From: Escherichia phage vB_EcoM_G2540
Sequence record: MK327936.1
Reading direction: 5' to 3' (one strand)
Length of the DNA: 64,000 nucleotides
Shown here piece after piece: positions 351 to 63,066 of the stretch (positions are counted from its first letter, which is position 1; every line of letters starts with the position of its first letter). The notes under the pieces are model-generated. The model was given only the letters and a program-made list of their open reading frames with translations. It did not search any database and was not told where the DNA came from. The position numbers and the translations under genes were made by a program.

Positions 351-2330
351 ATGACTTTATTATCTCCGGGCATTGAGCTCAAAGAAACTACGGTTCAAAG
401 CACCGTGGTTAATAACTCTACTGGTACAGCAGCTTTGGCCGGTAAATTCCAGTGGGGTCCTGCTTTTCAGATTAAACAGGTTACAAATGAAGTAGATTTA
501 GTTAATACTTTTGGTCAACCAACCGCTGAAACTGCTGACTATTTTATGTCTGCGATGAATTTCTTGCAGTACGGAAATGACTTACGAGTAGTTCGTGCTG
601 TTGATAGAGATACCGCTAAAAACTCATCACCAATTGCTGGTAATATTGAATACACAATTTCTACCCCAGGTAGTAACTATGCGGTTGGAGATAAAATCAC
701 GGTCAAATATGTTTCAGATGATATTGAAACTGAAGGTAAAATTACTGAAGTAGACGCAGATGGAAAAATTAAGAAAATTAATATTCCTACTGCAAAAATT
801 ATCGCTAAAGCTAAAGAAGTCGGTGAATATCCAGAATTAGGTTCTAACTGGACTGCGGAAATTTCTTCGTCTTCCTCTGGTTTAGCTGCAGTAATAACTC
901 TTGGAAAAATTATTACTGATTCTGGTATTTTATTAGCTGAAATTGAAAATGCTGAAGCTGCTATGACAGCGGTTGACTTTCAAGCAAATCTCGAAAAATA
1001 CGGAATTCCAGGAGTAGTAGCTCTTTATCCAGGCGAATTAGGCGATAAAATTGAAATTGAAATCGTATCTAAAGCTGACTATGCAAAAGGAGCTTCTGCA
1101 TTACTCCCAATTTATCCGGGCGGTGGTACTCGCGCATCTACTGCTAAAGCAGTGTTTGGATATGGACCACAAACTGATTCACAGTACGCTATTATAGTTC
1201 GTCGTAATGATGCTATTGTTCAAAGCGTTGTTCTTTCGACTAAGCGTGGTGAAAAAGATATTTACGATAGTAACATCTATATCGATGACTTTTTCGCAAA
1301 AGGCGGCTCAGAATATATTTTTGCAACTGCACAAAACTGGCCAGAAGGCTTCTCTGGAATTTTAACTCTGTCTGGTGGATTATCATCAAATGCTGAAGTA
1401 ACAGCAGGAGATTTGATGGAAGCTTGGGACTTCTTTGCTGACCGTGAATCTGTTGACGTTCAACTGTTTATTGCGGGTTCTTGTGCCGGTGAATCTTTAG
1501 AAACAGCATCTACTGTCCAAAAACACGTCGTTTCAATTGGGGATGCTCGCCAAGATTGCTTAGTATTGTGCTCACCGCCGCGTGAAACTGTAGTTGGAAT
1601 TCCTGTAACTCGTGCTGTTGATAACTTAGTCAATTGGAGAACTGCAGCAGGTTCATACACTGATAATAACTTTAATATCAGTTCAACCTATGCAGCAATT
1701 GATGGTAACTATAAGTATCAGTATGACAAATATAATGATGTGAATCGTTGGGTTCCATTAGCAGCTGATATTGCTGGTTTATGCGCAAGAACTGATAACG
1801 TATCTCAGACTTGGATGTCTCCAGCTGGTTATAATCGTGGTCAGATTCTTAACGTTATTAAACTGGCTATTGAAACTCGCCAGGCTCAGCGCGACCGTTT
1901 ATACCAAGAAGCTATCAACCCAGTAACTGGTACAGGTGGTGATGGTTACGTATTGTATGGTGATAAAACAGCTACTTCTGTTCCTTCTCCATTTGATCGT
2001 ATTAACGTTCGTCGTCTGTTTAATATGTTGAAAACGAACATCGGACGTAGTTCAAAATATCGTTTGTTCGAATTAAACAACGCGTTTACTCGTTCATCAT
2101 TCCGCACAGAAACTGCCCAGTACTTACAGGGAATTAAAGCTCTCGGTGGAATTTATGAATATCGTGTAGTTTGCGATACAACAAATAACACTCCGTCAGT
2201 AATTGATAGAAATGAGTTTGTTGCAACATTCTACATTCAACCGGCTAGAAGCATTAACTACATTACCTTGAACTTCGTAGCAACTGCTACTGGTGCAGAT
2301 TTCGATGAGTTAACTGGTCTTGCTGGTTAA
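351..2330 (+). CDS. 18: Contractile tail sheath protein gp18 (659 aa)
   Basis: 659 aa ORF, N-terminus MTLLSPGIELKETTVQSTVVNN as in T4 gp18; late promoter TATAAATA upstream; conserved position after gene 17. Confidence 0.95.
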   Translation: MTLLSPGIELKETTVQSTVVNNSTGTAALAGKFQWGPAFQIKQVTNEVDLVNTFGQPTAETADYFMSAMNFLQYGNDLRVVRAVDRDTAKNSSPIAGNIEYTISTPGSNYAVGDKITVKYVSDDIETEGKITEVDADGKIKKINIPTAKIIAKAKEVGEYPELGSNWTAEISSSSSGLAAVITLGKIITDSGILLAEIENAEAAMTAVDFQANLEKYGIPGVVALYPGELGDKIEIEIVSKADYAKGASALLPIYPGGGTRASTAKAVFGYGPQTDSQYAIIVRRNDAIVQSVVLSTKRGEKDIYDSNIYIDDFFAKGGSEYIFATAQNWPEGFSGILTLSGGLSSNAEVTAGDLMEAWDFFADRESVDVQLFIAGSCAGESLETASTVQKHVVSIGDARQDCLVLCSPPRETVVGIPVTRAVDNLVNWRTAAGSYTDNNFNISSTYAAIDGNYKYQYDKYNDVNRWVPLAADIAGLCARTDNVSQTWMSPAGYNRGQILNVIKLAIETRQAQRDRLYQEAINPVTGTGGDGYVLYGDKTATSVPSPFDRINVRRLFNMLKTNIGRSSKYRLFELNNAFTRSSFRTETAQYLQGIKALGGIYEYRVVCDTTNNTPSVIDRNEFVATFYIQPARSINYITLNFVATATGADFDELTGLAG

Positions 2331-2346
2331 TACGGTGCATTCTAAA

Positions 2347-2364
2347 GGCCTGTTTCGGCAGGCC
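2347..2364 (+). terminator. Stem-loop after gene 18
   Basis: GGCCTG-TTTCGG-CAGGCC directly downstream of the gp18 stop. Confidence 0.5.
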
Positions 2365-2365
2365 A

Positions 2366-2373
2366 TATAAATA
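2366..2373 (+). promoter_or_regulatory. Late promoter (TATAAATA) upstream of gene 19, one of two
   Basis: Exact TATAAATA immediately after the gp18 terminator hairpin; a second copy lies at 2425-2432. Confidence 0.6.
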
Positions 2374-2446
2374 CACTATATCCTTAATTCTTTAATTCTA
2401 TATGCCCTAGGTTAAACATAGGGATATAAATACTACAGAGGCTAAT

Positions 2447-2938
2447 ATGTTTGTAGATGATGTAACACGAGCGTTTGAATCTGGTGATTTTGCTCGACCT
2501 AACTTATTCCAAGTAGAAATTTCTTATCTTGGACAAAATTTTACATTCCAATGTAAAGCCACTGCTTTACCAGCTGGTATTGTAGAAAAAATTCCAGTCG
2601 GATTTATGAACCGTAAAATTAACGTAGCAGGCGATCGTACATTCGATGACTGGACTGTTACAGTAATGAACGATGAAGCTCATGATGCTCGCCAGAAGTT
2701 TGTTGATTGGCAAAGCATTGCTGCTGGTCAAGGAAACGAAATTACTGGTGGAAAACCTGCAGAGTATAAAAAGAGCGCTATTGTTCGTCAATATGCTCGT
2801 GATGCTAAAACAGTAACAAAAGAAATTGAAATTAAAGGTCTGTGGCCTACTAACGTGGGTGAACTTCAATTAGATTGGGATTCAAACAATGAAATCCAAA
2901 CCTTTGAAGTAACTCTTGCTCTCGATTATTGGGAATAA
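2447..2938 (+). CDS. 19: Tail tube protein gp19 (163 aa)
   Basis: 163 aa, matches recalled T4 gp19 sequence and size; two TATAAATA motifs upstream. Confidence 0.95.
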   Translation: MFVDDVTRAFESGDFARPNLFQVEISYLGQNFTFQCKATALPAGIVEKIPVGFMNRKINVAGDRTFDDWTVTVMNDEAHDARQKFVDWQSIAAGQGNEITGGKPAEYKKSAIVRQYARDAKTVTKEIEIKGLWPTNVGELQLDWDSNNEIQTFEVTLALDYWE

Positions 2939-2970
2939 AATGAATGGGGAGAAATCCCCATCCTGCTTAA

Positions 2971-4595
<1,625 letters not shown>

Positions 4596-4596
<1 letters not shown>

Positions 4597-4841
4597 TGGA
4601 AGGTTTAATTGAAGCTATTAAATCAAACGACCTCGTAGCCGCTCGTAAATTATTTGCTGAAGCCATGGCTGCAAGAACGATTGATTTAATTAAAGAAGAA
4701 AAAATCGCTATCGCTCGTAATTTCTTAATCGAAGGTGAAGAACCTGAAGACGAGGATGAAGATGAAGATGATGACGAAGATAGCGATGATAAAGACGACA
4801 AAAAAGACAAAGACTCTGACGAAGACGAGGATGATGAATAA
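4596..4841 (+). CDS. 67: Prohead core protein gp67 with acidic Asp/Glu-rich C-terminal tail
   Basis: 81 aa ORF; TAATG stop/start overlap with gene 20; conserved position between 20 and 21. Confidence 0.8.
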
Positions 4842-5266
4842 TGCTTCTGATCCCTGAAACTCATGAATTAGTTCTCGAGAATGTCGAAGCACTTATTCCT
4901 GAAGCACAGGGTCGCTTTGACGAATTGTCTTCTGCTTTAAATAAAGACGATATAAATACAATTGTCGAGAATATGCTTGATGATGAAACTGATTTAGCGG
5001 TTGCATTAGCTTCTATTAATGAAAATATGCCGTTAAATGAATTCATCGTTAAACATGTTTCCGCCCGTGGTGAAATTACTCGCACTAAAGACCGCAAAAC
5101 GCGTGAACGTAATGCATTTCAAACCACTGGACTGTCTAAAGCAAAACGTAGACAAATTGCTCGTAAAGCTACCAAAACGAAGATTGCCAATCCAGCAGGT
5201 CAATCTCGTGCTCAGCGTAAGCGTAAAAAAGCTCTTAAACGCCGTAAAGCATTAGGATTAAGCTAA
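4841..5266 (+). CDS. 68: Prohead core protein gp68, basic C-terminus
   Basis: 141 aa; start overlaps gp67 stop (TAATG); position between 67 and 21. Confidence 0.8.
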
Positions 5267-5904
5267 TGAATGAACCCCAATTACTAATTGAAACTTGGGG
5301 TCAACCTGGCGAAATTATTGATGGCGTACCAATGCTTGAATCTCATGATGGAAAAGACTTAGGTTTAAAACCGGGTTTATACATCGAAGGAATATTCATG
5401 CAAGCGGAAGTTGTCAATAGAAATAAACGTCTTTATCCAAAACGTATATTAGAAAAAGCGGTAAAAGACTATATTAATGAGCAAGTTTTAACTAAACAAG
5501 CTCTCGGAGAATTAAATCATCCTCCACGCGCTAATGTTGACCCAATGCAAGCCGCTATCATTATAGAAGATATGTGGTGGAAAGGAAATGACGTATACGG
5601 ACGAGCTCGTGTTATTGAAGGTGACCATGGTCCTGGAGATAAATTAGCAGCTAATATTCGTGCCGGATGGATTCCAGGAGTTTCTTCTCGTGGATTAGGT
5701 TCATTGACTGACACAAATAAAGGTTATCGTATCGTAAACGAAGGATTCAAATTAACTGTAGGTGTTGATGCAGTATGGGGTCCAAGTGCTCCAGATGCAT
5801 GGGTAACTCCTAAGGAAATTACCGAATCACAGACGGCGGAAGCCGATACAAGTGCCGATGACGCCTATATGGCTCTCGCAGAGGCCATGAAAAAAGCGTT
5901 ATAA
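5266..5904 (+). CDS. 21: Prohead core scaffold protein and maturation protease gp21 (212 aa)
   Basis: 212 aa, size and position as T4 gp21; start overlaps gp68 stop. Confidence 0.9.
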   Translation: MNEPQLLIETWGQPGEIIDGVPMLESHDGKDLGLKPGLYIEGIFMQAEVVNRNKRLYPKRILEKAVKDYINEQVLTKQALGELNHPPRANVDPMQAAIIIEDMWWKGNDVYGRARVIEGDHGPGDKLAANIRAGWIPGVSSRGLGSLTDTNKGYRIVNEGFKLTVGVDAVWGPSAPDAWVTPKEITESQTAEADTSADDAYMALAEAMKKAL

Positions 5905-5934
5905 ATATTATTATCTAAACAACAGGACTACAAA

Positions 5935-6744
5935 ATGCTTAAAGAACAACTGATTGCCGAAGCGCAGAAAATTGATGCTTCCGTTGCTCTTGATAGTATT
6001 TTCGAATCAGTTAATATTTCTCCGGAAGCAAAAGAAACTTTCGGCACTGTATTCGAAGCTACCGTCAAGCAGCACGCCGTTAAATTAGCTGAATCTCATA
6101 TCGCTAAAATTGCTGAAAAAGCAGAAGAAGAAGTAGAAAAAAATAAAGAAGAAGCCGAAGAAAAAGCTGAGAAGAAAATCGCTGAGCAAGCTTCTAAATT
6201 CATTGACCATCTTGCAAAAGAATGGCTCGCTGAAAATAAATTAGCAGTTGATAAAGGCATCAAAGCCGAACTGTTTGAATCCATGCTTGGTGGATTAAAA
6301 GAGCTCTTTGTTGAACACAACGTTGTTGTTCCAGAAGAATCAGTTGATGTTGTAGCTGAAATGGAAGAAGAGCTGCAAGAACATAAAGAAGAATCAGCTC
6401 GTCTGTTCGAAGAACTCAATAAGCGTGACGCATATATCAATTATGTGCAGCGTGAAGTGGCATTGAGCGAAAGTACTAAAGATCTGACTGAGTCTCAAAA
6501 AGAAAAAGTCTCTGCTCTGGTCGAAGGTATGGATTATTCAGATGCATTCTCAAGTAAATTGAGTGCAATCGTAGAAATGGTGAAGAAATCTAATAAAGAT
6601 GAAAGCACTATTACTGAGAGTATAAATACTCCTGATACTGAAGCAGCCGGACTGAATTTCGTCACTGAAGCTGTAGAAGATAAAGCTGCACAAGGTGCAG
6701 AAGATATTGTAAGTGTATATGCGAAAGTCGCATCTCGTTTCTAA
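5935..6744 (+). CDS. 22: Major prohead scaffolding core protein gp22 (269 aa)
   Basis: 269 aa, Glu/Lys-rich coiled-coil composition; late promoter TATAAATA at 5900-5907. Confidence 0.9.
   Translation: MLKEQLIAEAQKIDASVALDSIFESVNISPEAKETFGTVFEATVKQHAVKLAESHIAKIAEKAEEEVEKNKEEAEEKAEKKIAEQASKFIDHLAKEWLAENKLAVDKGIKAELFESMLGGLKELFVEHNVVVPEESVDVVAEMEEELQEHKEESARLFEELNKRDAYINYVQREVALSESTKDLTESQKEKVSALVEGMDYSDAFSSKLSAIVEMVKKSNKDESTITESINTPDTEAAGLNFVTEAVEDKAAQGAEDIVSVYAKVASRF
6621..6628 (+). promoter_or_regulatory. Candidate late promoter for gene 23 located inside gene 22
   Basis: Exact TATAAATA about 135 nt upstream of the gene 23 start. Confidence 0.4.
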
Positions 6745-6762
6745 TTTTAAAGGTTAACACAA

Positions 6763-8328
6763 ATGACTATCAAAACTAAAGCTGAACTTTTGAACAAATG
6801 GAAGCCATTACTGGAAGGTGAAGGTTTACCGGAAATTGCTAATAGCAAACAAGCGATTATCGCTAAAATCTTTGAAAACCAGGAAAAAGATTTCCAGACA
6901 GCTCCGGAATATAAAGACGAAAAAATTGCTCAGGCATTTGGTTCTTTCTTAACAGAAGCTGAAATCGGCGGTGACCATGGTTACAATGCTACTAACATCG
7001 CTGCAGGTCAGACTTCTGGCGCAGTAACTCAGATTGGCCCAGCTGTTATGGGTATGGTACGTCGTGCTATTCCTAACCTGATTGCTTTCGATATTTGTGG
7101 TGTTCAGCCGATGAACAGCCCGACTGGCCAGGTATTCGCATTGCGTGCAGTATATGGTAAAGACCCAGTGGCTGCCGGTGCTAAAGAAGCATTCCACCCA
7201 ATGTATGGTCCAGATGCAATGTTCTCTGGTCAGGGTGCTGCTAAGAAATTCCCAGCTCTGGCTGCTAGCACACAAACCGTTGTAGGTGATATCTATACTC
7301 ACTTCTTCCAGGAAACTGGTACTGTGTATCTGCAAGCTTCCGCTGTAGTAACAATCGATGCTGGTGCGACTGATGCTGCTAAATTAGATGCTGAAATTAA
7401 GAAACAAATGGAAGCTGGTGCACTGGTAGAAATCGCTGAAGGTATGGCTACTTCTATCGCTGAACTCCAGGAAGGTTTCAACGGTTCTACCGATAACCCA
7501 TGGAATGAAATGGGCTTCCGTATCGATAAACAAGTTATCGAAGCTAAATCTCGTCAGCTGAAAGCTGCTTACTCTATCGAATTAGCACAAGACCTCCGCG
7601 CTGTTCACGGTATGGATGCTGATGCTGAACTGTCTGGTATTCTGGCTACAGAAATTATGCTGGAAATCAACCGTGAAGTTGTTGATTGGATTAACTACTC
7701 AGCACAGGTTGGTAAATCTGGTATGACCCTGACTCCGGGTTCTAAAGCTGGTGTATTTGACTTCCAGGACCCAATCGATATTCGTGGTGCTCGCTGGGCA
7801 GGTGAATCCTTTAAAGCTCTGTTGTTCCAGATTGACAAAGAAGCAGTTGAAATTGCTCGTCAGACTGGTCGCGGCGAAGGTAACTTCATTATCGCTTCCC
7901 GTAACGTAGTTAACGTTTTGGCTTCAGTTGATACCGGCATTTCTTATGCTGCACAGGGTCTGGCTACCGGCTTCAACACTGATACTACCAAGTCAGTATT
8001 TGCTGGTGTTCTGGGTGGTAAATACCGTGTATATATCGACCAGTATGCTAAGCAGGATTATTTCACTGTAGGTTATAAAGGTCCGAACGAAATGGATGCT
8101 GGTATTTACTATGCTCCATATGTAGCTCTGACTCCGCTGCGTGGTTCCGATCCGAAGAACTTCCAACCGGTAATGGGATTCAAAACTCGTTACGGTATCG
8201 GTATCAACCCATTTGCAGAATCCGCTGCTCAGGCTCCGGCTTCTCGCATCCAGAGCGGTATGCCTTCTATTCTGAATAGCCTTGGTAAAAACGCTTACTT
8301 CCGCCGTGTATATGTTAAAGGTATCTAA
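6763..8328 (+). CDS. 23: Major capsid protein gp23 (521 aa)
   Basis: 521 aa; N-terminus MTIKTKAELLNKWKPLLEGEGLPEIANSKQAII matches T4 gp23. Confidence 0.97.
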   Translation: MTIKTKAELLNKWKPLLEGEGLPEIANSKQAIIAKIFENQEKDFQTAPEYKDEKIAQAFGSFLTEAEIGGDHGYNATNIAAGQTSGAVTQIGPAVMGMVRRAIPNLIAFDICGVQPMNSPTGQVFALRAVYGKDPVAAGAKEAFHPMYGPDAMFSGQGAAKKFPALAASTQTVVGDIYTHFFQETGTVYLQASAVVTIDAGATDAAKLDAEIKKQMEAGALVEIAEGMATSIAELQEGFNGSTDNPWNEMGFRIDKQVIEAKSRQLKAAYSIELAQDLRAVHGMDADAELSGILATEIMLEINREVVDWINYSAQVGKSGMTLTPGSKAGVFDFQDPIDIRGARWAGESFKALLFQIDKEAVEIARQTGRGEGNFIIASRNVVNVLASVDTGISYAAQGLATGFNTDTTKSVFAGVLGGKYRVYIDQYAKQDYFTVGYKGPNEMDAGIYYAPYVALTPLRGSDPKNFQPVMGFKTRYGIGINPFAESAAQAPASRIQSGMPSILNSLGKNAYFRRVYVKGI

Positions 8329-8343
8329 TCTTTGACGATTTAA

Positions 8344-8359
8344 GGGACCTTCGGGTCCC
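8344..8359 (+). terminator. Stem-loop after gene 23
   Basis: GGGACC-TTCG-GGTCCC followed by TTTAGTTGTTTTT. Confidence 0.7.
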
Positions 8360-8411
8360 TTTAGTTGTTTTTATGGTATAAATAAATCATATAAACCAAA
8401 AGGAAAGCGCA

Positions 8412-11017: not shown

Positions 11018-11219
11018 TTTTCACCTTTTTATTGATATGTCTTTTTCTATAGACAACTTTTTCTCGAGTTTCAAACTTATTCTTAGCAGTCATAGCTCGA
11101 GCCCATAATACAGCTACTTCTTTCGCCTGTAAGTTTAATTCACGAGCAATTTCAATGAATGACTTTCCAGACTCATGAAGAGTAAACACCACAACCTCAG
11201 TTCTCATAATCAATCTCAT
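11004..11219 (-). CDS. Hypothetical small basic protein (T4 24.3 position)
   Basis: 71 aa ORF, basic C-terminus; overlaps downstream ORF by 14 nt. Confidence 0.5.
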   Translation of the reverse strand: MRLIMRTEVVVFTLHESGKSFIEIARELNLQAKEVAVLWARAMTAKNKFETREKVVYRKRHINKKVKNGTV

Positions 11220-11309
11220 GTTATCGAGTTGGTGCCATTATATACATCATTTTCTGAGTGTGTTTTGTGTGCTTTCAAAATGAAGAAAGGGGGCCGAAGC
11301 CCCTTATGA

Positions 11310-12728
11310 TTATGGATAGGTATAGATAATACCAGTTTCTAAAGCAGTTTTATGAATGATGTATCCATTACGTGATTCTTGGACATCAACTTCTGGATAG
11401 TCTTTCATCATCTTCTGAAGAGTGTAACGATGCAGGTAGTATTTACTATCTGGATCTTCAGTTTTCCAATCTTTACCTTCTTCAGTCATTTTTTGGATTT
11501 CATCCATGACCCACCAACCGCACCAGATGTAAGCTGAGCTACGGTGTGGAAGAGGATGAACATAAGGTAATTCACCTTCTGGTTCTGGAGCAACTTTATC
11601 AGTCACTTGAACTTGACCTTCTGCCGTAATAGTTTTGCTATCATAATCAGCAGCAGTAACAGTCGCAGTAACTTCAATAGTTTGACTTCCAATAGATGAG
11701 GTATCAACGGTATATACATTAGTTGACCCTTCTACAGGAGAAGAATCTTTCTTCCATGAATACTCAATTTGCGCTTCTTCTGGAGCATCAGTAACATTAG
11801 CAGTAAATGTAGCCGAAGCATCTTGTTGAACGTTAATAGAAGGAGGAGTCAATGTAACCTGTGGATTCATTGTCTTCTTATTAACTGTTAATGATACTTC
11901 ATTAGAAGTAACTTCCTTTTCATTGTAATTTTCAGCAGTTACTTGGGCTACGCATTTAATTCTTTTTACTCCACTTGTAGTTGGAGTATAGCTAAATGTA
12001 GAGTTAGTTTCTCCACCAACTTGTGAATCATCTACATACCACTGATACGTAGCAGATGCTCCATCAGGTTGAGAAACTAAAGTAGCGGTAAATTCAACAG
12101 CTGTTCCGATTACTCCAGCTGAAGGACTATCGGGAGTTACTGCCAAGGTAGTTGTCTGTGTCTTTTTATTAACAGTCAGTGACACTTCATTAGAAGTAAC
12201 TTCTTTTGCATCATAATCTGTCGCGGTTACTTGAGCCACACACTTAATTGTTTTAACTCCGCTTGTGGTAGGAGTGTAATTGAATGTAGCAGAAGTTGCT
12301 TCGCCCACAGGAGAACCGTCAACGTGCCATTGATACGTAGCAGATGCACCTGGTGGCTGCGAAGCTAAAGCGGCAGTAAATTCAATAGCTGTTCCGATTA
12401 CTCCAGCGTCAGGGCTATTAGGAGTTACAGCTAAGGTGGTCGTTTGTGTCTTATTTTGAACTGTGATAGTTGTAGTAGCTTCTGCTGTTTCAGCTTCAGC
12501 TTCTGGAACTGTATTTGTTGCAACTACTTTAATAGTCTTTTGACCGGCAGGTCCTTTTAATACATAACTAAAAGTTGCTTCAGCTCCATCTTGTGGAACA
12601 TCATCTACAGTCCAAGCATAGGTAATAGGTCCATCTCCAGTTTGACCACTGGGTGTAGCAGTAAACTGCTGAGTCTGATCTATAACTCCAGTAGGTGTTT
12701 TAGGAGTTATATCAACTGTAAAAGCCAT
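11310..12728 (-). CDS. hoc: Highly immunogenic outer capsid protein Hoc, 472 aa, with four Ig-like domains plus capsid-binding domain
   Basis: N-terminus MAFTVDITPKTPTGVID and C-terminus ...HKTALETGIIYTYP as T4 Hoc; contains two near-identical 96-aa Ig-like repeats. Confidence 0.9.
   Translation of the reverse strand: MAFTVDITPKTPTGVIDQTQQFTATPSGQTGDGPITYAWTVDDVPQDGAEATFSYVLKGPAGQKTIKVVATNTVPEAEAETAEATTTITVQNKTQTTTLAVTPNSPDAGVIGTAIEFTAALASQPPGASATYQWHVDGSPVGEATSATFNYTPTTSGVKTIKCVAQVTATDYDAKEVTSNEVSLTVNKKTQTTTLAVTPDSPSAGVIGTAVEFTATLVSQPDGASATYQWYVDDSQVGGETNSTFSYTPTTSGVKRIKCVAQVTAENYNEKEVTSNEVSLTVNKKTMNPQVTLTPPSINVQQDASATFTANVTDAPEEAQIEYSWKKDSSPVEGSTNVYTVDTSSIGSQTIEVTATVTAADYDSKTITAEGQVQVTDKVAPEPEGELPYVHPLPHRSSAYIWCGWWVMDEIQKMTEEGKDWKTEDPDSKYYLHRYTLQKMMKDYPEVDVQESRNGYIIHKTALETGIIYTYP
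11877..12452 (-). repeat. Tandem duplication of a 288-bp Ig-like domain unit inside hoc
   Basis: Residues ~93-188 and ~189-284 both read KTQTTTLAVTP(N/D)SP...YQW(H/Y)VD...KCVAQVTA...EVTSNEVSLTVNK; the two DNA copies are visibly similar but diverged. Confidence 0.8.
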
Positions 12729-12737
12729 AAGTTATCC

Positions 12738-13418
12738 TTATTTTAATGTTACGAAAGAAGAATTGCGTGTTTCACGAATTAAAACTGATCCGTCGCGGTT
12801 AATGTAATAAATTAAGCTAAATAAAGTTTGGTGTGCTGACGCATGTTCAAAACTAGTTGGGTGAGATTTCCAATCCGGAGTTTCAGCAATCCATTGATAA
12901 ATCCACCAAGGAACAGTACAGAATCCTGGATTTTTTCCAATCAGCTGAAGATTCGGACTAAAGTTTTCCGGAAGAGTAAATACAGACGGCTTTTCAGATT
13001 CAACAATCTCAGCTACAGCCTGTTCGAATTTTTCTTCAACAAAAGGAGTATCTTCAATCAAAACTGAGGTATTTTCAGGAATTTTATCCGTTTCTACTAC
13101 TTCAATTTTAATGTCAGATTTAACCGGAGAATCAATCAGAAGTGCTGCTTCTGGATTGACTTCTTCATCGTCATATTTTAATCCCTCTGCGGCATCAGCA
13201 GCATCAATTAGGTCTTTAATAGATAACCCATCAGTCTCTGGCATAGGTTCACTAGCGAGCTTCTGGAGGGCTTCTTCAATATCAACAACGATATTATCAA
13301 AAGATTTATTCTTTTTGACCTTTATACCAAACTGTTCAGCATATTCAGCTAATTTAGCTTTAGCTTCTTTGTTATCATCAAGAGCCTTCAGCTCTGCAAT
13401 ATAATCTTTATCTATCAT
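12738..13418 (-). CDS. inh: Inhibitor of prohead protease (Inh), 226 aa
   Basis: 226 aa acidic protein at conserved position between hoc and uvsW. Confidence 0.7.
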   Translation of the reverse strand: MIDKDYIAELKALDDNKEAKAKLAEYAEQFGIKVKKNKSFDNIVVDIEEALQKLASEPMPETDGLSIKDLIDAADAAEGLKYDDEEVNPEAALLIDSPVKSDIKIEVVETDKIPENTSVLIEDTPFVEEKFEQAVAEIVESEKPSVFTLPENFSPNLQLIGKNPGFCTVPWWIYQWIAETPDWKSHPTSFEHASAHQTLFSLIYYINRDGSVLIRETRNSSFVTLK

Positions 13419-13468
13419 AATATTTCCTCAGTATAAATATAGATATATTTATTACATGGTATTTAGAC

Positions 13469-14980
13469 ATGACTGACATTAAAGTACATTTTTATGATTT
13501 TAGTCACGTGAGAATTGACTGTGAAGAAAGTACATTTCATGAACTCCGTGATTTCTTTAGCTTTGAAGCTGATGGGTATCGTTTTAATCCGAAATACAAA
13601 TATGGCCACTGGGATGGACGAATCCGTCTTTTAGATTATAATCGTCTTCTTCCATTCGGCTTAGTCGGGCAAATTAAAAAGTTCTGTGATAACTTTGGCT
13701 ATAAAGCCTGGATTGACCCACAAATTAACGAAAAAGAAGAATTATCAAGAAAAGATTTTGATGAATGGCTTTCTAAATTAGAAATCTATTCAGGAAATAA
13801 AAGAATTGAACCACACTGGTATCAAAAAGATGCAGTGTTCGAAGGATTAGTTAATCGTCGTAGAATTCTTAATCTTCCAACATCTGCAGGTAAATCTTTA
13901 ATTCAAGCTTTGCTTGCGCGGTATTATTTGGAAAATTATGAAGGTAAAATTCTTATCATTGTTCCAACAACTGCTCTGACAACTCAGATGGCTGATGACT
14001 TCGTCGACTATCGTTTATTCAGCCATGCAATGATAAAGAAAATTGGTGGCGGAGCATCAAAAGATGATAAATATAAAAATGATGCACCAGTCGTTGTTGG
14101 TACATGGCAAACTGTAGTTAAACAACCAAAAGAATGGTTCTCACAGTTTGGAATGATGATGAATGATGAATGCCATCTTGCTACAGGAAAAAGTATTTCA
14201 TCTATCATATCAGGTTTAAATAACTGTATGTTTAAATTTGGTCTATCTGGTTCATTACGTGATGGCAAAGCCAATATCATGCAGTATGTTGGAATGTTTG
14301 GTGAAATATTTAAGCCAGTAACGACTTCTAAGTTAATGGAAGATGGACAAGTAACTGAGCTAAAAATTAATAGTATTTTTCTTCGCTATCCCGATGAGTT
14401 CACTACTAAATTAAAGGGAAAAACTTATCAAGAAGAAATAAAAATTATTACTGGGCTTAGTAAAAGAAATAAATGGATCGCTAAATTAGCTATTAAGCTT
14501 GCGCAAAAAGATGAAAACGCTTTTGTCATGTTTAAACATGTATCACATGGTAAAGCTATTTTCGATTTAATTAAAAATGAATACGATAAAGTTTATTACG
14601 TATCAGGGGAAGTTGATACCGAAACCCGCAATATAATGAAAACCTTAGCTGAAAATGGTAAAGGAATAATTATAGTAGCTAGTTATGGTGTATTTTCTAC
14701 TGGTATTTCAGTTAAAAATCTGCATCATGTTGTTTTAGCGCACGGTGTTAAATCAAAAATCATTGTATTACAAACAATCGGTCGTGTATTACGTAAGCAT
14801 GGTTCTAAGACAATAGCAACCGTCTGGGACCTCATAGATGATTGTGGCGTTAAGCCAAAATCTGCTAATACGAAAAAGAAATATGTTCATTTGAACTATC
14901 TTTTAAAACACGGCATTGATCGTATTCAGCGCTACGCAGATGAAAAATTTAATTACGTAATGAAAACAGTTAATTTATAA
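13469..14980 (+). CDS. uvsW: UvsW SF2 DNA/RNA helicase (503 aa)
   Basis: 503 aa; helicase motifs (LPTSAGKS Walker A-like, DECH box MMMNDECHLATGK); late promoter at 13432-13439. Confidence 0.9.
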   Translation: MTDIKVHFYDFSHVRIDCEESTFHELRDFFSFEADGYRFNPKYKYGHWDGRIRLLDYNRLLPFGLVGQIKKFCDNFGYKAWIDPQINEKEELSRKDFDEWLSKLEIYSGNKRIEPHWYQKDAVFEGLVNRRRILNLPTSAGKSLIQALLARYYLENYEGKILIIVPTTALTTQMADDFVDYRLFSHAMIKKIGGGASKDDKYKNDAPVVVGTWQTVVKQPKEWFSQFGMMMNDECHLATGKSISSIISGLNNCMFKFGLSGSLRDGKANIMQYVGMFGEIFKPVTTSKLMEDGQVTELKINSIFLRYPDEFTTKLKGKTYQEEIKIITGLSKRNKWIAKLAIKLAQKDENAFVMFKHVSHGKAIFDLIKNEYDKVYYVSGEVDTETRNIMKTLAENGKGIIIVASYGVFSTGISVKNLHHVVLAHGVKSKIIVLQTIGRVLRKHGSKTIATVWDLIDDCGVKPKSANTKKKYVHLNYLLKHGIDRIQRYADEKFNYVMKTVNL

Positions 14981-23506: not shown

Positions 23507-23510
23507 CAAT

Positions 23511-23528
23511 GGGGACCTTTCGGTCCCC
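23511..23528. terminator. Bidirectional stem-loop between convergent gene 54 and the alt-side operon
   Basis: GGGGACC-TTTC-GGTCCCC followed by ATATTTTTA. Confidence 0.6.
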
Positions 23529-23534
23529 ATATTT

Positions 23535-23825
23535 TTATTTACGGAATGAAATGAAAGCAGCAACTGAAGCAACTAAACTGTCTTCAATATAAACTTCAAT
23601 TTTTACCGGAGCTTCTGACTCAAATTTACCTGTTACTACACCCTGAAAAATACTTTCAGTCTGTTCTGGCTTTGAAAAATTTTCAGAAGGAAAAATTCCG
23701 AACTTTTTATCTGTTCCAAAAATTTTAATAAATTCATCGTAAACTGCTTCATTAAAAGCGTTATCAGCAGGAATAACGCCTTCAACTACAAGTTCTTGAC
23801 CTAAAAAGCGCAAAGAAGATTTCAT
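23535..23825 (-). CDS. Hypothetical protein (alt.-3 position)
   Basis: 96 aa ORF downstream of the alt paralogs. Confidence 0.5.
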   Translation of the reverse strand: MKSSLRFLGQELVVEGVIPADNAFNEAVYDEFIKIFGTDKKFGIFPSENFSKPEQTESIFQGVVTGKFESEAPVKIEVYIEDSLVASVAAFISFRK

Positions 23826-23885
23826 TTTGTGTTCCTCATGTTATGTCAGTAAGACTACTATAACACAACATAAGGAACTTGTAAA

Positions 23886-25943
23886 CTACATTTTGAACTT
23901 TTTAGACATTCCGTTGATGTTAACCAAAGAAGCTAATATTTGAGAAACTTCGTTTTCCTCTTCTTTTGATTCTTCTACAAGGAATTGATTAAATCCAGCC
24001 ATTGGACGAACTTCACCAGTTTCCATTAAATGGTCGCCATCATATACTGATTCTTCTAATTGTTCAGAAGGAGGAACGATTGTACCTTCGATTAGATACT
24101 TGTTATAAGCAGTTTCTTTCATAAAGTACGTACTTACTTTATTAATCTTTAGTAAAATTCCGCGCGGTAGAATAACTTCAGCTTCTGATGGAAATCCTGA
24201 TAAATGACCTGGAACGATAACTTTGATTCGCTCAGCTCCTTTAATTACCATACCCACGCTAGTTTCAGCATCTTCATTAGCATATGTAGAATGACTACCC
24301 ATATGCATCAAATCTTCTGCATCAACGGAATCTTCTCCTTCACCAGAAAATACTGCGCCGGAATCATCTAGAGCCATATAGTTTTTACCATGCTCACCGA
24401 AGATATTTGGTTTAAGCGATGTGGATACGAAGTTCTTGAAATAAAACATTTTATTTTCAATGTTATGACGCAAAGTTTTAAAGGTAACTTCTTGTCCACG
24501 GTAAAGCGTAGTTCCTGGAGGAAGAACTGAACCTTTAGCGAATGCAGAATCCAACGTCTCGATGTGCTTAATAGCACGTTCCATATATTCTTCACGGGTA
24601 GAATCTGGTTTACCCAAAAGGAACGAGTTCATTTCAACATATGAATCAGCACAATAATCTTCAATTACGTCAGATTCAGCCTGAGTTAATCCTTTTGGAG
24701 TTACTTCGGTGCTTGCGTATTCATACGCCTGGGCGGCAGATTCATTAATCAATTTATAAATGCCATTCATGACGAATTGAATAATAGCTGTCTTTTCATC
24801 TGGCGTGGCTTTAGAACCTTTAACTAAATCATTAATAATTTTCTTAATAACATCAAAGCTATTAGAAATATTAATGTCAGCAAGATCGCTTAAAATTTTA
24901 TCAGTTTTATAATCAAAGAATTCTTTATTCTTTAAATATTCTTGAGAACCTTGATATGTTATATCGCTCTGCAGCTTGATAGATGGATCACGTAAACGCG
25001 CATGGGCCAATGCGATATGATTTCGGAAGTTTTCTAGTTCATAATCGCTAGATTTAAAACGAGAAGCACTCCTCATACCACCAATAGCTCCTTTGCTGAA
25101 GTTTGAACCAATCTGAATAACGCCAGAGTTCATTGGTCCTTCTGCTTTATACACCGGAACTTTAAATTCAAACTCTTGATATTTCTTAGCAGCGAAGCTA
25201 TCACCCTGAAGTGAAGCATCGACAGTAGAATATTGAGCTTGTGCTGCTAATCGACGACTGATTTTAGTTTTCTGAATAACAGCTTGGTCCGTGCGTTTAT
25301 CATTTTCTAAAGCAATAGAAGCAGCAACAGCGACAGCTTTAGGAACAGCATTTCCTGTTTTAACGTCTACATAAACATCACCGACCTTTGATTCAACTTT
25401 TGTGAATAACTCAGTTGAAATAGGAGGTACACCTGGAATGTCTTCTAAATTGGCATTTTTACGGTAAACCATAATATATGCGTACTTTTTATCGTAATCC
25501 CAGATTTCCTTTAAAAGAACATATCGACCTGCTCCTTTAGTACGTACTAAACGGTCAGCAATAACTTGCATTTGACGAGCAGCGCCATTTGTTTTACTCT
25601 TTAGTACGCGAAATAAGCATGCATCAATTTTATACTGTTTCATTGTTTGAAGAGCAGTATCAAAAACAGCATTAATGACGCCAATTGGATTTCCACCCAA
25701 GTTTTTAAGCTTAACTAACGATAATTTCTCGTTGACACCTATCATTACGATATGCATCATTTTATCGCCTGGCTTAACGTTTTTATTCGTATCACCGCCA
25801 GAGGTGTATGTACAAAATCTAAATCCAGGAAGCACGCTTTCTTCACCGGCTTGAATAGCAAAAATTTGTGGTATTTTATGCTTAGGATTTAAGTTAACAA
25901 CCGGCGCCGAAGCGCCGTCAAATAATTCTGTAATAAGTTCCAT
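23886..25943 (-). CDS. Alt-family NAD-protein ADP-ribosyltransferase, paralog A (685 aa)
   Basis: N-terminus MELITELFDG...; C-terminal ART motifs: LYRGQ (Arg), FVSTSL (STS), SEAEVILPRG (E-x-E). Confidence 0.85.
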   Translation of the reverse strand: MELITELFDGASAPVVNLNPKHKIPQIFAIQAGEESVLPGFRFCTYTSGGDTNKNVKPGDKMMHIVMIGVNEKLSLVKLKNLGGNPIGVINAVFDTALQTMKQYKIDACLFRVLKSKTNGAARQMQVIADRLVRTKGAGRYVLLKEIWDYDKKYAYIMVYRKNANLEDIPGVPPISTELFTKVESKVGDVYVDVKTGNAVPKAVAVAASIALENDKRTDQAVIQKTKISRRLAAQAQYSTVDASLQGDSFAAKKYQEFEFKVPVYKAEGPMNSGVIQIGSNFSKGAIGGMRSASRFKSSDYELENFRNHIALAHARLRDPSIKLQSDITYQGSQEYLKNKEFFDYKTDKILSDLADINISNSFDVIKKIINDLVKGSKATPDEKTAIIQFVMNGIYKLINESAAQAYEYASTEVTPKGLTQAESDVIEDYCADSYVEMNSFLLGKPDSTREEYMERAIKHIETLDSAFAKGSVLPPGTTLYRGQEVTFKTLRHNIENKMFYFKNFVSTSLKPNIFGEHGKNYMALDDSGAVFSGEGEDSVDAEDLMHMGSHSTYANEDAETSVGMVIKGAERIKVIVPGHLSGFPSEAEVILPRGILLKINKVSTYFMKETAYNKYLIEGTIVPPSEQLEESVYDGDHLMETGEVRPMAGFNQFLVEESKEEENEVSQILASLVNINGMSKKFKM

Positions 25944-25946
25944 GAT

Positions 25947-28043
25947 TTATCCTTGAACGAACTTGTAAGGCATGTTTGTAATATCTATGCAAGACGCAAT
26001 AATTCCAAGAGATGATTCTACTTTCTGTTTAACGTTTGATGAAACAAATGATGCAAAGTCAACTCTGTCTTCTATTTCAATATCACCTGTCATTGCAACC
26101 AATTCACCAGTTTCCATTAAATGGTCTCCATCATAGATTACCGATTCGGTGAGCTCTTCCGTGGTCATAACTTCAGCTTGAATGAGTTTTGTATTATTAG
26201 ATGTTGTTCCGTCATTATTAGAAGCATCAGTTATTTTATTAACTTTGACCATCAATCCACGCGGTAGAATAACTTCAGCTTCTGTTGCTATTCCGAGACT
26301 TCCTGGATATACAACATTAACTTTATGAGCTCCATCAATTGCCCATCCTATTTGAACTTTAACGTATTCAGGATTTTCTTTATACGCTCTTATTTCGTTT
26401 GGATTAATAGTTATTCCTTCTTCATTTTTATCAACTGTTAATTCATTGCGAGCTTCTGGTTCTAAAAGACCAATACCAGCATGTGTAATTCCAAAACGTC
26501 CAAAAATGATAGGAGTTAAAGAAGTAGATACAAAATTTCTGAAGTAGAACACTTTATTTTTAACTAACGCTTCATATATAGGAGCAGTCATACTTTGAGC
26601 ACGATAAACTGTAATGCCTTCTGGTATACGGTCACCATTTTCAAAAGCTGAATCTAAGTTATTTATAGCAGATTCAATTTCTTTTTCACTCATTACATCA
26701 TATCGTTCTGGATTGTAACGACCTAAAAGAAGATTATTGATGTCAGTATATCCTGAACCGCAATATTCTCTAATGCCACGCTTTTGTGATGGAGTATATT
26801 TAGAACCATCGCGGGCAATAGTAATATCAATCATTGGACCAGCACCAATTCCAGAAAAACTGTAAATCATTCGTTTGAGGAATTTAGTTTTTGCTGCGTT
26901 CCAGGAATTTTTAGTTATTTCTTCCCAGACTTCATCTGGTTGTCCTTTACGATTTTTATTATGATTAGCAAGCCATTTATCTTTATAATCTTCAAAGAAT
27001 TGATTTACAGCTGCTGCGTATTTCTCTAAACATTTTATTGAAGTAGTTGGTTCATTTTTAATTGCATTAAAAATTACTTCTTTAATTTTTTCTGAAACTT
27101 CACCGACTTGACTCATTGGAAAGAATTTATAATCATAGTGAAGTTCATCTGCCGTTCCTTCAGCAATAATTTTTGCTGCCTTTGTTTTAGAAGCTAATGA
27201 ATTAATTCCAATTTTCATTTCTTCTGCTTCGGGAATTAAAGGTGCAGTAGCTGGTTTATTAAAATTAGCTGCTGTAGATTCATACTTCTGGAATAATTCA
27301 CTTTCAAATCTAGAAGATTCCAATGACTGACTTTGTGCAATTGCTCTACGGGAAATTTTAACTTTAACGATTACGGCTTGGTCAGAACGTTTATCATTTT
27401 CTTGTGCAATTGATGCTGCAATTGCCTCATTTTTAGTTACTTGGGCTCCAGTATCTTTATTGATATAAACATCACCAACCTTCGATTCAACCTTAGTAAA
27501 GAGTTCAGTACTAATTTCTGGAACTCCTGGAATGTCTTCTAGTGATACGTTTTTACGATGTATAAGAATATATGCATACTTTTTATCGTAATCCCAGAGT
27601 TCCTTAAGAAGGACGTATCTGCCACCTGAACGACTACGGATAAGTCTATCAGCAATAAGTTGAATTTGTCGAGCTTGACCGGCGGTTTTAGACTTAAGAA
27701 TGCGTAGCATACATGCATCAATTTTATACTGTTTCATTGTTTGCATTGCTACGGTAAATACTGAATTGATGTAATTAATAGGACTCGGTCCAAGACCCTT
27801 TAATTTAGCAATTGACCCCTTTGCAGTTAATGTAAAAGGAACGATATGCATCATTTTATCGCCCATTTTTAAATCGCGATTAGTATCACCTCCAGATGTA
27901 TAGGTACATAAACGAAAGCCTGGTTGTTCAATTGCATCATCAACATGAACTGAAAAAATTTGTGGTATTTTCTTCTTTGGATTTAAGTTTGTAATCGGAA
28001 GAGTAGTATCTTCGTCAAATAATTCTGTAATGAGTTCCATCAT
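25947..28043 (-). CDS. alt: Alt-family NAD-protein ADP-ribosyltransferase, paralog B (698 aa)
   Basis: N-terminus MMELITELFDEDTTLPITNLNPKKKIPQIF; ART motifs VYRAQ, FVSTSL, TEAEVILPRG; 3 nt downstream of paralog A on the same strand. Confidence 0.85.
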   Translation of the reverse strand: MMELITELFDEDTTLPITNLNPKKKIPQIFSVHVDDAIEQPGFRLCTYTSGGDTNRDLKMGDKMMHIVPFTLTAKGSIAKLKGLGPSPINYINSVFTVAMQTMKQYKIDACMLRILKSKTAGQARQIQLIADRLIRSRSGGRYVLLKELWDYDKKYAYILIHRKNVSLEDIPGVPEISTELFTKVESKVGDVYINKDTGAQVTKNEAIAASIAQENDKRSDQAVIVKVKISRRAIAQSQSLESSRFESELFQKYESTAANFNKPATAPLIPEAEEMKIGINSLASKTKAAKIIAEGTADELHYDYKFFPMSQVGEVSEKIKEVIFNAIKNEPTTSIKCLEKYAAAVNQFFEDYKDKWLANHNKNRKGQPDEVWEEITKNSWNAAKTKFLKRMIYSFSGIGAGPMIDITIARDGSKYTPSQKRGIREYCGSGYTDINNLLLGRYNPERYDVMSEKEIESAINNLDSAFENGDRIPEGITVYRAQSMTAPIYEALVKNKVFYFRNFVSTSLTPIIFGRFGITHAGIGLLEPEARNELTVDKNEEGITINPNEIRAYKENPEYVKVQIGWAIDGAHKVNVVYPGSLGIATEAEVILPRGLMVKVNKITDASNNDGTTSNNTKLIQAEVMTTEELTESVIYDGDHLMETGELVAMTGDIEIEDRVDFASFVSSNVKQKVESSLGIIASCIDITNMPYKFVQG

Positions 28044-28076
28044 ATCCTCTCTAGTGTTTATTCTATTTATAAAATT

Positions 28077-28094
28077 AAAGGCCCGAAGGCCTTT
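28077..28094. terminator. Stem-loop between the gene 30 operon and alt
   Basis: AAAGGCC-CGAA-GGCCTTT. Confidence 0.5.
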
Positions 28095-28281
28095 AATAAT
28101 CTATTGGTAAGAGAGTACGATATATTTCAAACTTTGGACCTTTTTCATAGGCATCAAATGTTTCTGTGAATTTATTATAAGCATATGCATCTATAAATTC
28201 AATCATGATTTGTGATACAGAAGTAGAAACATCTCCACCTTCTTTTTGAGCCACGACAATTGTTTCTAAGTAAGCTTTCAT
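28093..28281 (-). CDS. Hypothetical small protein
   Basis: 62 aa ORF; start overlaps DNA ligase stop by 4 nt. Confidence 0.45.
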   Translation of the reverse strand: MKAYLETIVVAQKEGGDVSTSVSQIMIEFIDAYAYNKFTETFDAYEKGPKFEIYRTLLPIDY

Positions 28282-35569: not shown

Positions 35570-35802
35570 AGTACGCCATACACCCTTTGTGCTTCAACTA
35601 ATCCATCAAAATCCAATTTGAGATGTGTTATTTGGTCACCATCACCTGGATTCACAATTACTAATACCGAACGAGGAGTTTCGGTAATAACACGAACCGA
35701 CGTTTCAGGAAATCGTTCAGAAACCTTATTTACCAATTCTTGAGCAAATAGTTTAACTTTTTCTTGGAATTCTTTAACAGTAATTGGTTTTTCGCTTAGC
35801 AT
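35566..35802 (-). CDS. Hypothetical protein (cd.2 position)
   Basis: 78 aa ORF. Confidence 0.5.
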   Translation of the reverse strand: MLSEKPITVKEFQEKVKLFAQELVNKVSERFPETSVRVITETPRSVLVIVNPGDGDQITHLKLDFDGLVEAQRVYGVL

Positions 35803-36323
35803 GTTGATCCTAGCTCCTTACTTTCAACATTTTTAACTAATTTGACAGAAACTAATTCAGCATCTTGGGTAATCATTACCGGACCTTCTTCATGCTCTTC
35901 AAGATATTCTAGAGCTTTCTTTTTAGCTTCTTCCTTCGTATCAGTTTGAGCATAGATATAGAACATACAACCAGTAATACCTACTACTTTCCACTTAATT
36001 TCTTTATCAGTTTTAATTTCAAATTTACTTACAGAATCATCTTTTTGAACTTCTTCGAAAAAAGAATATTCTAACATATAAGCAATTGAAAATAACGGGC
36101 TAACTTTATAGGATTCACCCATTACATCAACAGCTTTATACCAACAATCATCAATTTCACGTTTAATGCTAATAACATTTTTCGCAGGATCTATTTTTAC
36201 TTTAAATGAATTTTCCCCAATAAACTGGGCAATTCGTTTATTAGCCCCGCAAGTTTCATTAAAAATATCTTTATACCCAGTTTTAAAGCGATAAACCTTA
36301 TCTTCTTCAAACCATTCGCTCAT
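35796..36323 (-). CDS. Hypothetical protein (cd.3 position)
   Basis: 175 aa ORF. Confidence 0.5.
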   Translation of the reverse strand: MSEWFEEDKVYRFKTGYKDIFNETCGANKRIAQFIGENSFKVKIDPAKNVISIKREIDDCWYKAVDVMGESYKVSPLFSIAYMLEYSFFEEVQKDDSVSKFEIKTDKEIKWKVVGITGCMFYIYAQTDTKEEAKKKALEYLEEHEEGPVMITQDAELVSVKLVKNVESKELGSTC

Positions 36324-36863: not shown

Positions 36864-38271
<1,408 letters not shown>

Positions 38272-38275
<4 letters not shown>

Positions 38276-47877: not shown

Positions 47878-48225
47878 TCAATACGGTTTAGCATCAAATT
47901 TTCTTTCAATTTCAGGCGTAAAATACAATTCTTTACCACGCTTGGAAAAGCGACCAATAATATGATAATTATTCTCATCAAACGTGATATTGCCGATATC
48001 CATAGCTTTCAACCAAATATCGATATTTCTGTCAAGCTTTATATCAAAATTCCAATACGGAGAACTATTACCGAAAATACTGCAAGCGGATTCAGTGAAA
48101 CAACTGCTATAAATTTTGTCTTTAGGAACTACTAATTGATAGACGCCTTTAATAAACTGAGGACCCTGCCATTTTGGTTGTTTCGCGTCTTTTTCTAATA
48201 GAATAGGGTAATAATTAAAATTCAT
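47878..48225 (-). CDS. Hypothetical protein between frd and td
   Basis: 115 aa ORF. Confidence 0.5.
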   Translation of the reverse strand: MNFNYYPILLEKDAKQPKWQGPQFIKGVYQLVVPKDKIYSSCFTESACSIFGNSSPYWNFDIKLDRNIDIWLKAMDIGNITFDENNYHIIGRFSKRGKELYFTPEIERKFDAKPY

Positions 48226-48244: not shown

Positions 48245-49074
<830 letters not shown>

Positions 49075-49085
49075 ATTATCTCCTA

Positions 49086-49418: not shown

Positions 49419-49428
49419 AATATTTTCC

Positions 49429-49671: not shown

Positions 49672-49725
49672 TTTATTCTCCTTAATTGATAGGGTAATAG
49701 TATCACGCTACTACCCTTCTGTAAA

Positions 49726-50105: not shown

Positions 50106-50149
50106 TACGGTTTCCTCATTTTAACGGGGCGGTAATAGCCCCTTGATAA

Positions 50150-63045: not shown

Positions 63046-63051
63046 CAACAA

Positions 63052-63066
63052 GGGGGAAATGCCCCC
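63052..63066 (+). terminator. Stem-loop after gene 37
   Basis: GGGGG-AAATG-CCCCC followed by TTTGG. Confidence 0.5.

Follow-up and report, generated by a model that had tools for sequence, protein, structure and literature searches.

Escherichia phage vB_EcoM_G2540 encodes two adjacent proteins of the Alt family, and the question raised by this locus is whether the second is a spare copy of the first or an enzyme with work of its own. Alt of phage T4, which belongs to the ADP-ribosyltransferases (ARTs), is present in about 40 copies per head and is injected with the DNA (PMC9026906), and in the standard account three T-even ADP-ribosyltransferases, Alt, ModA and ModB, reprogram the host (PMC10468400). 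The DNA analyzed here, referred to as the window, is a stretch of 64,000 nucleotides (nt) from sequence record MK327936.1 and includes the gene alt together with its neighbor, AltB. The explanation that is probably correct is that alt and AltB are ancient paralogs, of lineages A and B respectively, whose products would both be packaged, trimmed and injected ADP-ribosyltransferases, most likely with different substrates.

The window comes from a Tequatrovirus (T4-like) genome and is collinear with T4 coordinates 98186 to ~159000. On the minus strand, the order is alt.-3 (23535..23825; 96 amino acids (aa), Pfam DUF5498), an open reading frame (ORF) of 685 aa (23886..25943), an ORF of 698 aa (25947..28043), alt.1 (28093..28281), the gp30 DNA ligase gene, 30.1 and 30.2, with gp29, gp48 and gp54 beside the pair on the plus strand. 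The succession of gene 30, alt.1, alt, alt.-2 ("AltB"), alt.-3 and gene 54 is what T-even phages normally have at this locus, with its two Alt genes. A preliminary description of this DNA had reported two adjacent ORFs on the same strand, 3 nt apart, of 685 and 698 aa, and the arrangement is indeed as described, with the spacer at 25944-25946. The length of 685 aa also stands for AltB (23886..25943, minus strand), which occupies position 2 and is assigned by ORF, BLASTP, Pfam and PHROG evidence to lineage B, that of RB14 alt.-2 and JS98 altb. The length of 698 aa, however, is corrected to 697 for alt, the lineage A gene in position 1. The longer ORF begins MMELITELFD and the shorter MELITELFD; a GAGG Shine-Dalgarno sequence lies 2 nt from the first ATG of alt and 5 nt from the second, and alt is annotated at 2094 nt in RB14, T2 and T6, so that the second ATG (28040) is most likely the start and alt would extend over 25947..28040 on the minus strand, one codon less than the mechanical ORF.

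The two proteins align over their full lengths with 41% identity (BLASTP, E = 3e-162), a value that excludes chance similarity. When identity is read in blocks of 30 residues, it amounts to 53–80% over residues 1-238, 10–27% in the middle and 3–57% in the catalytic part, in agreement with the earlier observation of a similar N-terminal region of about 200 aa followed by a diverged middle and C-terminal part.

That both genes encode Alt-family ADP-ribosyltransferases, as had been proposed, is evidenced through phrog_802 ("Alt-like RNA polymerase ADP-ribosyltransferase"), which covers residues 1-685 of AltB at 854 bits and residues 1-696 of Alt at 910 bits, and through PF03496 (ADPrib_exo_Tox), whose cutoff of 23.4 bits is exceeded by both AltB (72 bits) and Alt (130 bits). 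The homology to the family is full-length and includes the N-domain, which is 68% identical between the paralogs and, in the window Alt, 99% identical to that of T4. PF26846, which is taken here to be this N-domain, accompanies PF03496 as a precomputed hit in all homologs. In a search with a Pfam release that does not contain PF26846, the N-domain, the helical region and the C-tail were left without matches, bar one to CesA that was dismissed as sub-threshold. A search of NCBIfam gave nothing, and sequence searches of the PDB gave no match with AltB and just weak matches to CDTa and iota toxin with Alt.

The full R / STS / E-x-E triad can be read in each protein, as the preliminary description stated. 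In AltB it consists of YRGQ (R482, 24498..24500), FVSTS (507-509, with STS at 24417..24425) and EAE (587-589, 24177..24185), and in Alt of YRAQ (R480, 26601..26603), FVSTS (505-507, with STS at 26520..26528) and EAE (587-589, 26274..26282), all on the minus strand. The AltB residues R482, S507, S509, E587 and E589 do not vary across 13 diverse members of the family, the catalytic residues are at least 90% conserved among 58 representatives clustered at 50% identity, and they are present in all 20 of the members inspected individually. A Foldseek search with the ART part of an AlphaFold2 model of AltB gave matches to Vis, C3, Certhrax, CDTa, VIP2 and iota toxins, the lowest E value being 4e-8. 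Both proteins exceed the curated profile threshold and, with the ART fold taken from the AltB model, belong to the R-S-E clade. They are not of the binary-toxin (VIP2, iota Ia or CDTa) type, as an N-terminal adaptor that duplicates the ART fold was not found in them. Within the R-S-E clade, E-x-E is the signature of arginine-specific enzymes, and each protein would accordingly be expected to mono-ADP-ribosylate arginines of host proteins using NAD+.

The preliminary description implied that the pair is a distinctive trait of this phage, and in this respect the data point elsewhere, with the same pair being found in T2, T6, RB14, some 400 records and the Dhakavirus JS98. A query with the 5-kb locus matched 544 phage records, 366 of them with at least 80% query coverage, and the matches were mostly 95–99% identical. 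A tblastn census with the 441 residues of AltB that lie outside the N-terminal part found 401 records at ≥95%, a single record at 60–95% and the rest below 60%. The annotation differs between these genomes: in T2 and T6 the 697-aa alt precedes a "hypothetical protein" of 685 aa, in RB14 the second gene is called alt.-2, in JS98 the names are alta and altb, with place and order unchanged, and RefSeq labels both genes "Alt-like RNA polymerase ADP-ribosyltransferase". Phage AnYang has three tandem copies (694, 681 and 707 aa, 1096..7356 of locus L010). The two-gene pair is evidently the common and ancestral state, judging from these genomes, with T4 as the exception.

The pair is also already known, being annotated in the databases and its paralogy mentioned in print. 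An earlier list of alt duplications among T4-like phages includes T4 alt.-1/alt.-2 as well as 44RR, where the duplicate is full-length (Nolan et al., 2006; PMC1524935), and in a paper of 2026 the phages 6phi13 and SHFML-11 are noted to have two Alt-like paralogs with 43.3% identity, along with a speculation that their functions have diverged (PMC13600099). Regarding the function of the second paralog, passing remarks alone were found in the literature, and no experiment. What is added here is the origin of alt.-1/alt.-2, the retention of both gp21 sites in AltB, the purifying selection, and a three-module structure with cassette exchange.

Whether the T4 reference carries the same two genes, in which case the arrangement would be ancestral, had been left as a question by the preliminary description, and the answer is divided. 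The arrangement does appear ancestral, from its presence in T2, T6, RB14 and JS98, yet T4 itself does not have two intact genes. In T4, alt (682 aa) is followed by alt.-1 (61 aa) and alt.-2 (67 aa), described in the T4 record as "an old duplication of the first part of gene alt". These two short genes correspond nearly base for base to codons 1-118 of AltB and share its gene start, with the T4 copy being frameshifted by a 1-nt deletion in an A-run, which splits it in two, and truncated. Blastn breakpoints and a reading of the junction place the segment deleted in T4 (~1.69 kb) at 23906..25595 of the window, on the minus strand; a short direct repeat, CT(T/C)TTTAG, is found at both ends of this segment in the window, and the T4 junction falls inside the repeat. 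The families phrog_23015 (length 61) and phrog_15247 (length 67), presumed from their lengths to be those of T4 alt.-1 and alt.-2, score 138 and 131 bits on AltB versus 78 and 72 on Alt. The codon match, the deletion breakpoints and these scores together indicate that what T4 retains is the ruin of a second paralog that was once full-length.

In all, 91 phage records have the T4-type junction, the natural isolates vB_EcoM_112 and Salmonella phage Lv5cm among them, and the deletion is therefore a feature of a clade and not a laboratory accident. Phage SfPhi01 has a T4-type alt beside an intact AltB, which presumably represents the state before the deletion. As T4 lost AltB, the gene is dispensable on laboratory hosts. 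The standard account of three ADP-ribosyltransferases thus derives from a phage that lacks a second, strongly conserved Alt-type enzyme encoded by most of its relatives, T2 and T6 among them.

The loss in T4 shows that AltB can be dispensed with, as would be expected of a decaying duplicate without function, but the sequences from the other phages effectively refute that explanation. Pairwise Nei-Gojobori comparisons among the window, RB14, SfPhi01, T2 and T6 gave ratios of non-synonymous to synonymous substitution rates (dN/dS) of 0.026–0.046 for AltB (0.03–0.05 when rounded), with 44–100 synonymous and 6–17 non-synonymous differences per pair. The same comparison gave 0.03–0.08 for alt, 0.015–0.059 for DNA ligase and 0.03–0.17 for gp54. 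The AltB ORF was uninterrupted in all five orthologs checked. Since dN/dS is low and ligase-like, the cassette occurs at ≥95% in 401 records and the catalytic residues are conserved, AltB is judged to be a functional gene under strong purifying selection.

As read from conservation, composition and motifs, Alt and AltB have the same plan, namely a putative N-propeptide MELITE, then a basic N-domain of ~230 aa and a variable cassette of ~390 aa, and lastly a putative acidic C-propeptide of 54–65 aa. In Alt, these parts are assigned on the minus strand to 28023..28040 for the N-propeptide, up to the gp21 site ITE-6; 27324..28022 for the N-domain (aa 7-239, isoelectric point (pI) 9.5); 26145..27323 for the cassette, made up of a helical part (aa 240-412) and the ART domain (aa 413-628) and continuing to the P1 residue Glu632; and 25950..26144 for the C-propeptide (aa 633-697, pI 4.2), which begins SVIYDGDHLMETGE after LTE-632. 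The corresponding parts of AltB, on the same strand, are the N-propeptide at 25926..25943, with the gp21 motif ITE-6; the N-domain at 25230..25925 (aa 7-238, pI 9.7), for which the AlphaFold2 model has a predicted local distance difference test (pLDDT) value of 86 and a predicted template modeling score (pTM) of 0.83; the cassette at 24051..25229, with helical aa 239-415 and ART aa 416-625, to the P1 residue Glu631; and the C-propeptide at 23889..24050 (aa 632-685, pI 4.6), which begins SVYDGDHLMETGE after LEE-631. The pI is thus 9.5–9.7 in the N-domain, 5.2–5.4 in the cassette and 4.2–4.6 in the C-tail of both proteins. The AlphaFold2 model of the AltB protein (mean pLDDT 73.5) has an alpha/beta N-domain at 12-227, a disordered linker at 228-243, a helical region at 250-470, the ART beta-core at 480-625 and a low-confidence C-tail at 629-685.

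The ends of the two proteins bear on their processing. T4 Alt is cut by the prohead protease gp21 after ITE-6 and LTE-619, with the removal of 63 C-terminal residues, as mapped by mass spectrometry (PMC5694885). At the positions aligned to these sites, ITE-6 is present in the window Alt and in AltB alike, and the second motif is LTE-632 in Alt and LEE-631 in AltB, with both C-terminal gp21-type sites preceding SV(I)YDGDHLMETGE; the check for a gp21 cleavage consensus near the N-termini that had been suggested earlier is hence positive in both proteins. The P1 glutamates E6 and E631 do not vary among the 13 aligned members and reach ≥90% conservation in the alignment of 58. At the sequence level, the pair has the characters of the Alt family in its gp21 motifs at the T4-mapped positions, its position in the locus and a late-promoter consensus upstream of alt.

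This promoter, of the T4-type sequence TATAAATA, was located by motif search at 28064..28071 on the minus strand, following the stop codon of alt.1 and a hairpin rich in GC, AAAGGCCTTCGGGCCTTT, and it is the single copy between alt.1 and alt. A second copy of TATAAATA inside alt (26660..26667) is not claimed as an internal late promoter, as such a sequence is expected by chance about once per 10 kb of such composition. A promoter search between alt and AltB found none, and AltB has a ribosome-binding site, AAGGA, inside the last codons of alt. One late message starting from 28071..28064 would thus carry both genes, with translation of AltB coupled to that of alt. A bidirectional hairpin terminator predicted at the boundary of gene 54 and alt.-3 (23509..23530) is likely the 3′ end of this alt-altB(-alt.-3) transcript. 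Just past the AltB stop, at 23857..23885 on the minus strand, a candidate T4-early-type promoter (GTTTACA, a 17-nt spacer and TG-TATAGT) was identified by consensus match; it would serve alt.-3, which adjoins AltB downstream. A scan for sigma-70 promoters found 18 sites compared with 19.5 in shuffled sequence, that is, no excess.

It is likely, then, from promoter position and positional conservation of the cleavage motifs, that AltB resembles Alt in being a late product that is packaged, trimmed and injected. Both proteins would enter the prohead core, gp21 would trim them after Glu6 and after Glu632 (Alt) or Glu631 (AltB), and both would be ejected with the DNA. A different possibility is that AltB is left unpackaged and acts late in the producing cell as a fourth intracellular ADP-ribosyltransferase, in a role like that of ModA and ModB. 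AltB would be made late, at a time when it could also act in the cell, which gives this possibility some room; it is nevertheless very unlikely. AltB has the full Alt N-domain and both propeptides with conserved P1 glutamates, the N-domain is almost confined to ART proteins of ~600–710 aa, and the loci inspected are all at the alt position. ModA and ModB, moreover, are early gene products, and Alt is the injected one (PMC10468400).

If both proteins are injected, AltB might simply provide a second dose or a backup of the RNA-polymerase-modifying activity of Alt. Such redundancy would agree with the architecture, catalytic motif, processing motifs and transcription unit that Alt and AltB have in common, and with the loss of AltB in the T4 clade without obvious cost. 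The cassettes of the two proteins, however, are just 27% identical, and the insert between STS and E-x-E (24186..24416, minus strand, in AltB, where the alignment marks it as hypervariable) is the least conserved part of both paralogs, at 3–17% identity and essentially unrelated. In related toxins, the substrate-recognition loops are located in this STS-ExE region. Redundant copies should, in addition, homogenize or decay, whereas the similarity within a genome is confined to the N-domain and the two lineages have stayed distinct in at least two genera, with purifying selection acting on each. Redundancy is for these reasons considered quite unlikely. Because the cassettes are so dissimilar and diverge most in the substrate-recognition region, Alt and AltB would most likely act on different sets of substrates, as the preliminary description had also suggested.

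One special case of different targets is that AltB is an injected counter-defense or toxin-neutralizing enzyme, perhaps with a non-protein substrate such as RNA or DNA. This would fit with a gene that is dispensable on laboratory strains and retained in most natural isolates. The neighboring alt.-3 of T4 can acquire mutations that extend its C-terminus and give escape from the CmdTAC defense (PMC11618068), and T4 ModB attaches NAD-capped RNA to host proteins, as Alt does weakly (PMC10468400). Specific evidence for such a role of AltB was, however, not found, and E-x-E and the C3/iota-like fold point to arginine in proteins as the acceptor, so that this version of the explanation is unlikely.

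Several observations weigh against the explanation favored here, of two injected enzymes with different substrates. T4 and 90 other records do without AltB, and any role of AltB is therefore conditional. The gp21 motif [LI]-x-E is short and each protein has several further matches, which makes the motif alone weak evidence; the argument rests on its positional conservation with the sites mapped in T4. The literature search found no direct evidence of AltB in virions or being injected, the one Tequatrovirus virion proteome located, that of fD1 (PMC8309999), is illegible at the rows covering the alt genes, and substrate data for AltB were not found in the literature. Different cassettes could also converge on the same substrates.

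The comparison of further copies shows that these proteins evolve in modules. Aligned with T4 Alt, the window Alt is ~99% identical over residues 1-250 and 90–100% identical over the last ~100 residues, and the central residues 250-600 range from 13 to 73% per block; the EME of T4 is replaced by EAE in the window protein, which is also longer by 15 residues. An alignment of both proteins to T4 Alt and to each other, as the preliminary description had recommended, thus places the divergence in the central and catalytic segments. The cassette of the window alt occurs at ≥95% in 311 records and at 80–90% in 31, and is 46% identical to the T4-type cassette. The gene alt, then, is itself present in several allelic forms, distinguished by the part of the enzyme that faces the substrate.

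Separate trees were made for the N-domain, the cassette and the C-tail using the copies from the window, T4, JS98 and AnYang, and the trees of the three parts disagree. Cassettes and C-tails form two deep lineages across genera, A in position 1 and B in the last position, with a cassette identity of 51% between B copies versus 27% between A and B. N-domains, on the other hand, group first by genus, with paralogs in one genome being 65–68% identical and Tequatrovirus and Dhakavirus copies of the same lineage 42–47%. AnYang copy 1 and the window Alt are 81% identical in the cassette and just 46% in the N-domain, and JS98 alta and AnYang copy 1 are 98% identical in the N-domain and 50% in the cassette. 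The cassette of the middle AnYang copy branches deep, apart from the others; it is 26–32% identical to those of the seven other copies compared and stands between a lineage-B-like N-domain and a lineage-A-like tail, with its catalytic residues intact (WRGQ, YVSTS and EQE). Natural chimeras are seen as well: the Tequatrovirus NIC06P2 has a single gene (3281..5347 of locus L004) in which an Alt body passes into a tail of lineage B within the codons for YDGDHLMETGE, and the single-gene protein P0005 has ~180 N-terminal aa of Alt followed by a lineage-B remainder. These two chimeras show that the conserved flanks act as recombination sites.

The N-domain is rare, occurring in just 69 clusters of 1.84 billion representatives, almost all of 600–712 aa, and 56 of the 58 carriers scanned have the ART domain and no other Pfam domain. 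The idea that it is a general delivery module for many types of effector is thus not supported by the sequence searches. A Foldseek search of the AltB N-domain against viral models returned Alt homologs and, with lower scores, large uncharacterized proteins of unrelated phages with a similar fold (E 1e-7 to 1e-4, TMq ~0.5, ~13% identity), some of them annotated as zeta-toxin, deaminase or ParB, which can be taken as a lead alone.

Taken jointly, these patterns allow a broader reading, which is plausible without being the probable one: the Alt locus may serve to exchange cassettes among enzymes that the capsid delivers, and AltB would in that case be a fourth injected T-even ADP-ribosyltransferase with host substrates of its own, possibly a defense component. 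A head-matched basic N-domain, similar between tandem copies, may carry interchangeable helical and ART cassettes, and these may move between phages and even genera, with one to three copies in an array. That the model phage T4 lost AltB would explain why the enzyme was overlooked. None of this overturns what is established, and as a genome feature the pair is ordinary and already annotated, but it may offer a lead for work on phage ADP-ribosylation.

Elsewhere in the window, alt.1 (62 aa) gives a match of 100 bits to PF24647 ("Phage blade protein"). Relative to T4, the window is without the segD and segE homing-endonuclease genes and the nrdB intron with I-TevIII (~8339-8397, ~13455-13475, ~41824-41827 and 42748-42974); the mobE region is shortened and the td intron region is apparently present. 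Three small accessory ORFs on the minus strand are not in T4, encoding proteins of 175 aa (phrog_3710; 35796..36323), 106 aa (phrog_2364; 37955..38275) and 115 aa (phrog_1928; 47878..48225). The frd.1/frd.2 region is replaced (48845-50111) and holds a DUF7247 protein of 110 aa and a DUF5417 protein of 80 aa. The hoc/inh region (11096-13455) is ~92% identical to T4, compared with 96–98% for most of the window, and from past ~60230 to 64000, in or near the distal tail-fiber genes, there is no long blastn match to T4 and the G+C content rises to 0.40–0.43.

Among known systems, the closest to AltB are the second genes of its relatives. The RB14, T2 and T6 proteins are products of the same gene, ~97–99% identical (6–14 non-synonymous changes in 685 codons), and JS98 altb is of the same lineage with a cassette that is 51% identical; AltB has no material difference from the RB14 alt.-2, JS98 altb, T2 and T6 entries. 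T4 Alt (gpalt, 682 aa, UniProt P12726) occupies the same slot in its genome, between alt.1/gene 30 and alt.-3/gene 54, and the window alt is its positional ortholog. It has the N-domain, the R-S-E ART domain, the C-propeptide and the gp21 motifs in common with both window proteins, but belongs to the other paralog lineage than AltB, whose cassette is 27% identical to that of T4 Alt and whose tail ends ...KFKM.

ModA and ModB are proteins of ~200 aa without the Alt N-domain and propeptides. The two T4 enzymes belong to the same Alt/VIP2 ART clade and occur in the same phage group (PMC5512222), but unlike Alt they are early products that are not injected (PMC10468400), and they are not encoded in the window. 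The R-S-E toxins C3, Vis, Certhrax, VIP2, iota Ia and CDTa resemble the Alt proteins in their catalytic fold and in having R / S-T-S / E-x-E, with an identity of 13–20%, and differ in their route, as the toxins use secretion or a binary-toxin B component whereas Alt uses the phage head. The spacing of the catalytic residues differs as well, with ~40 residues between STS and E-x-E in C3 compared with ~80 in the Alt proteins.

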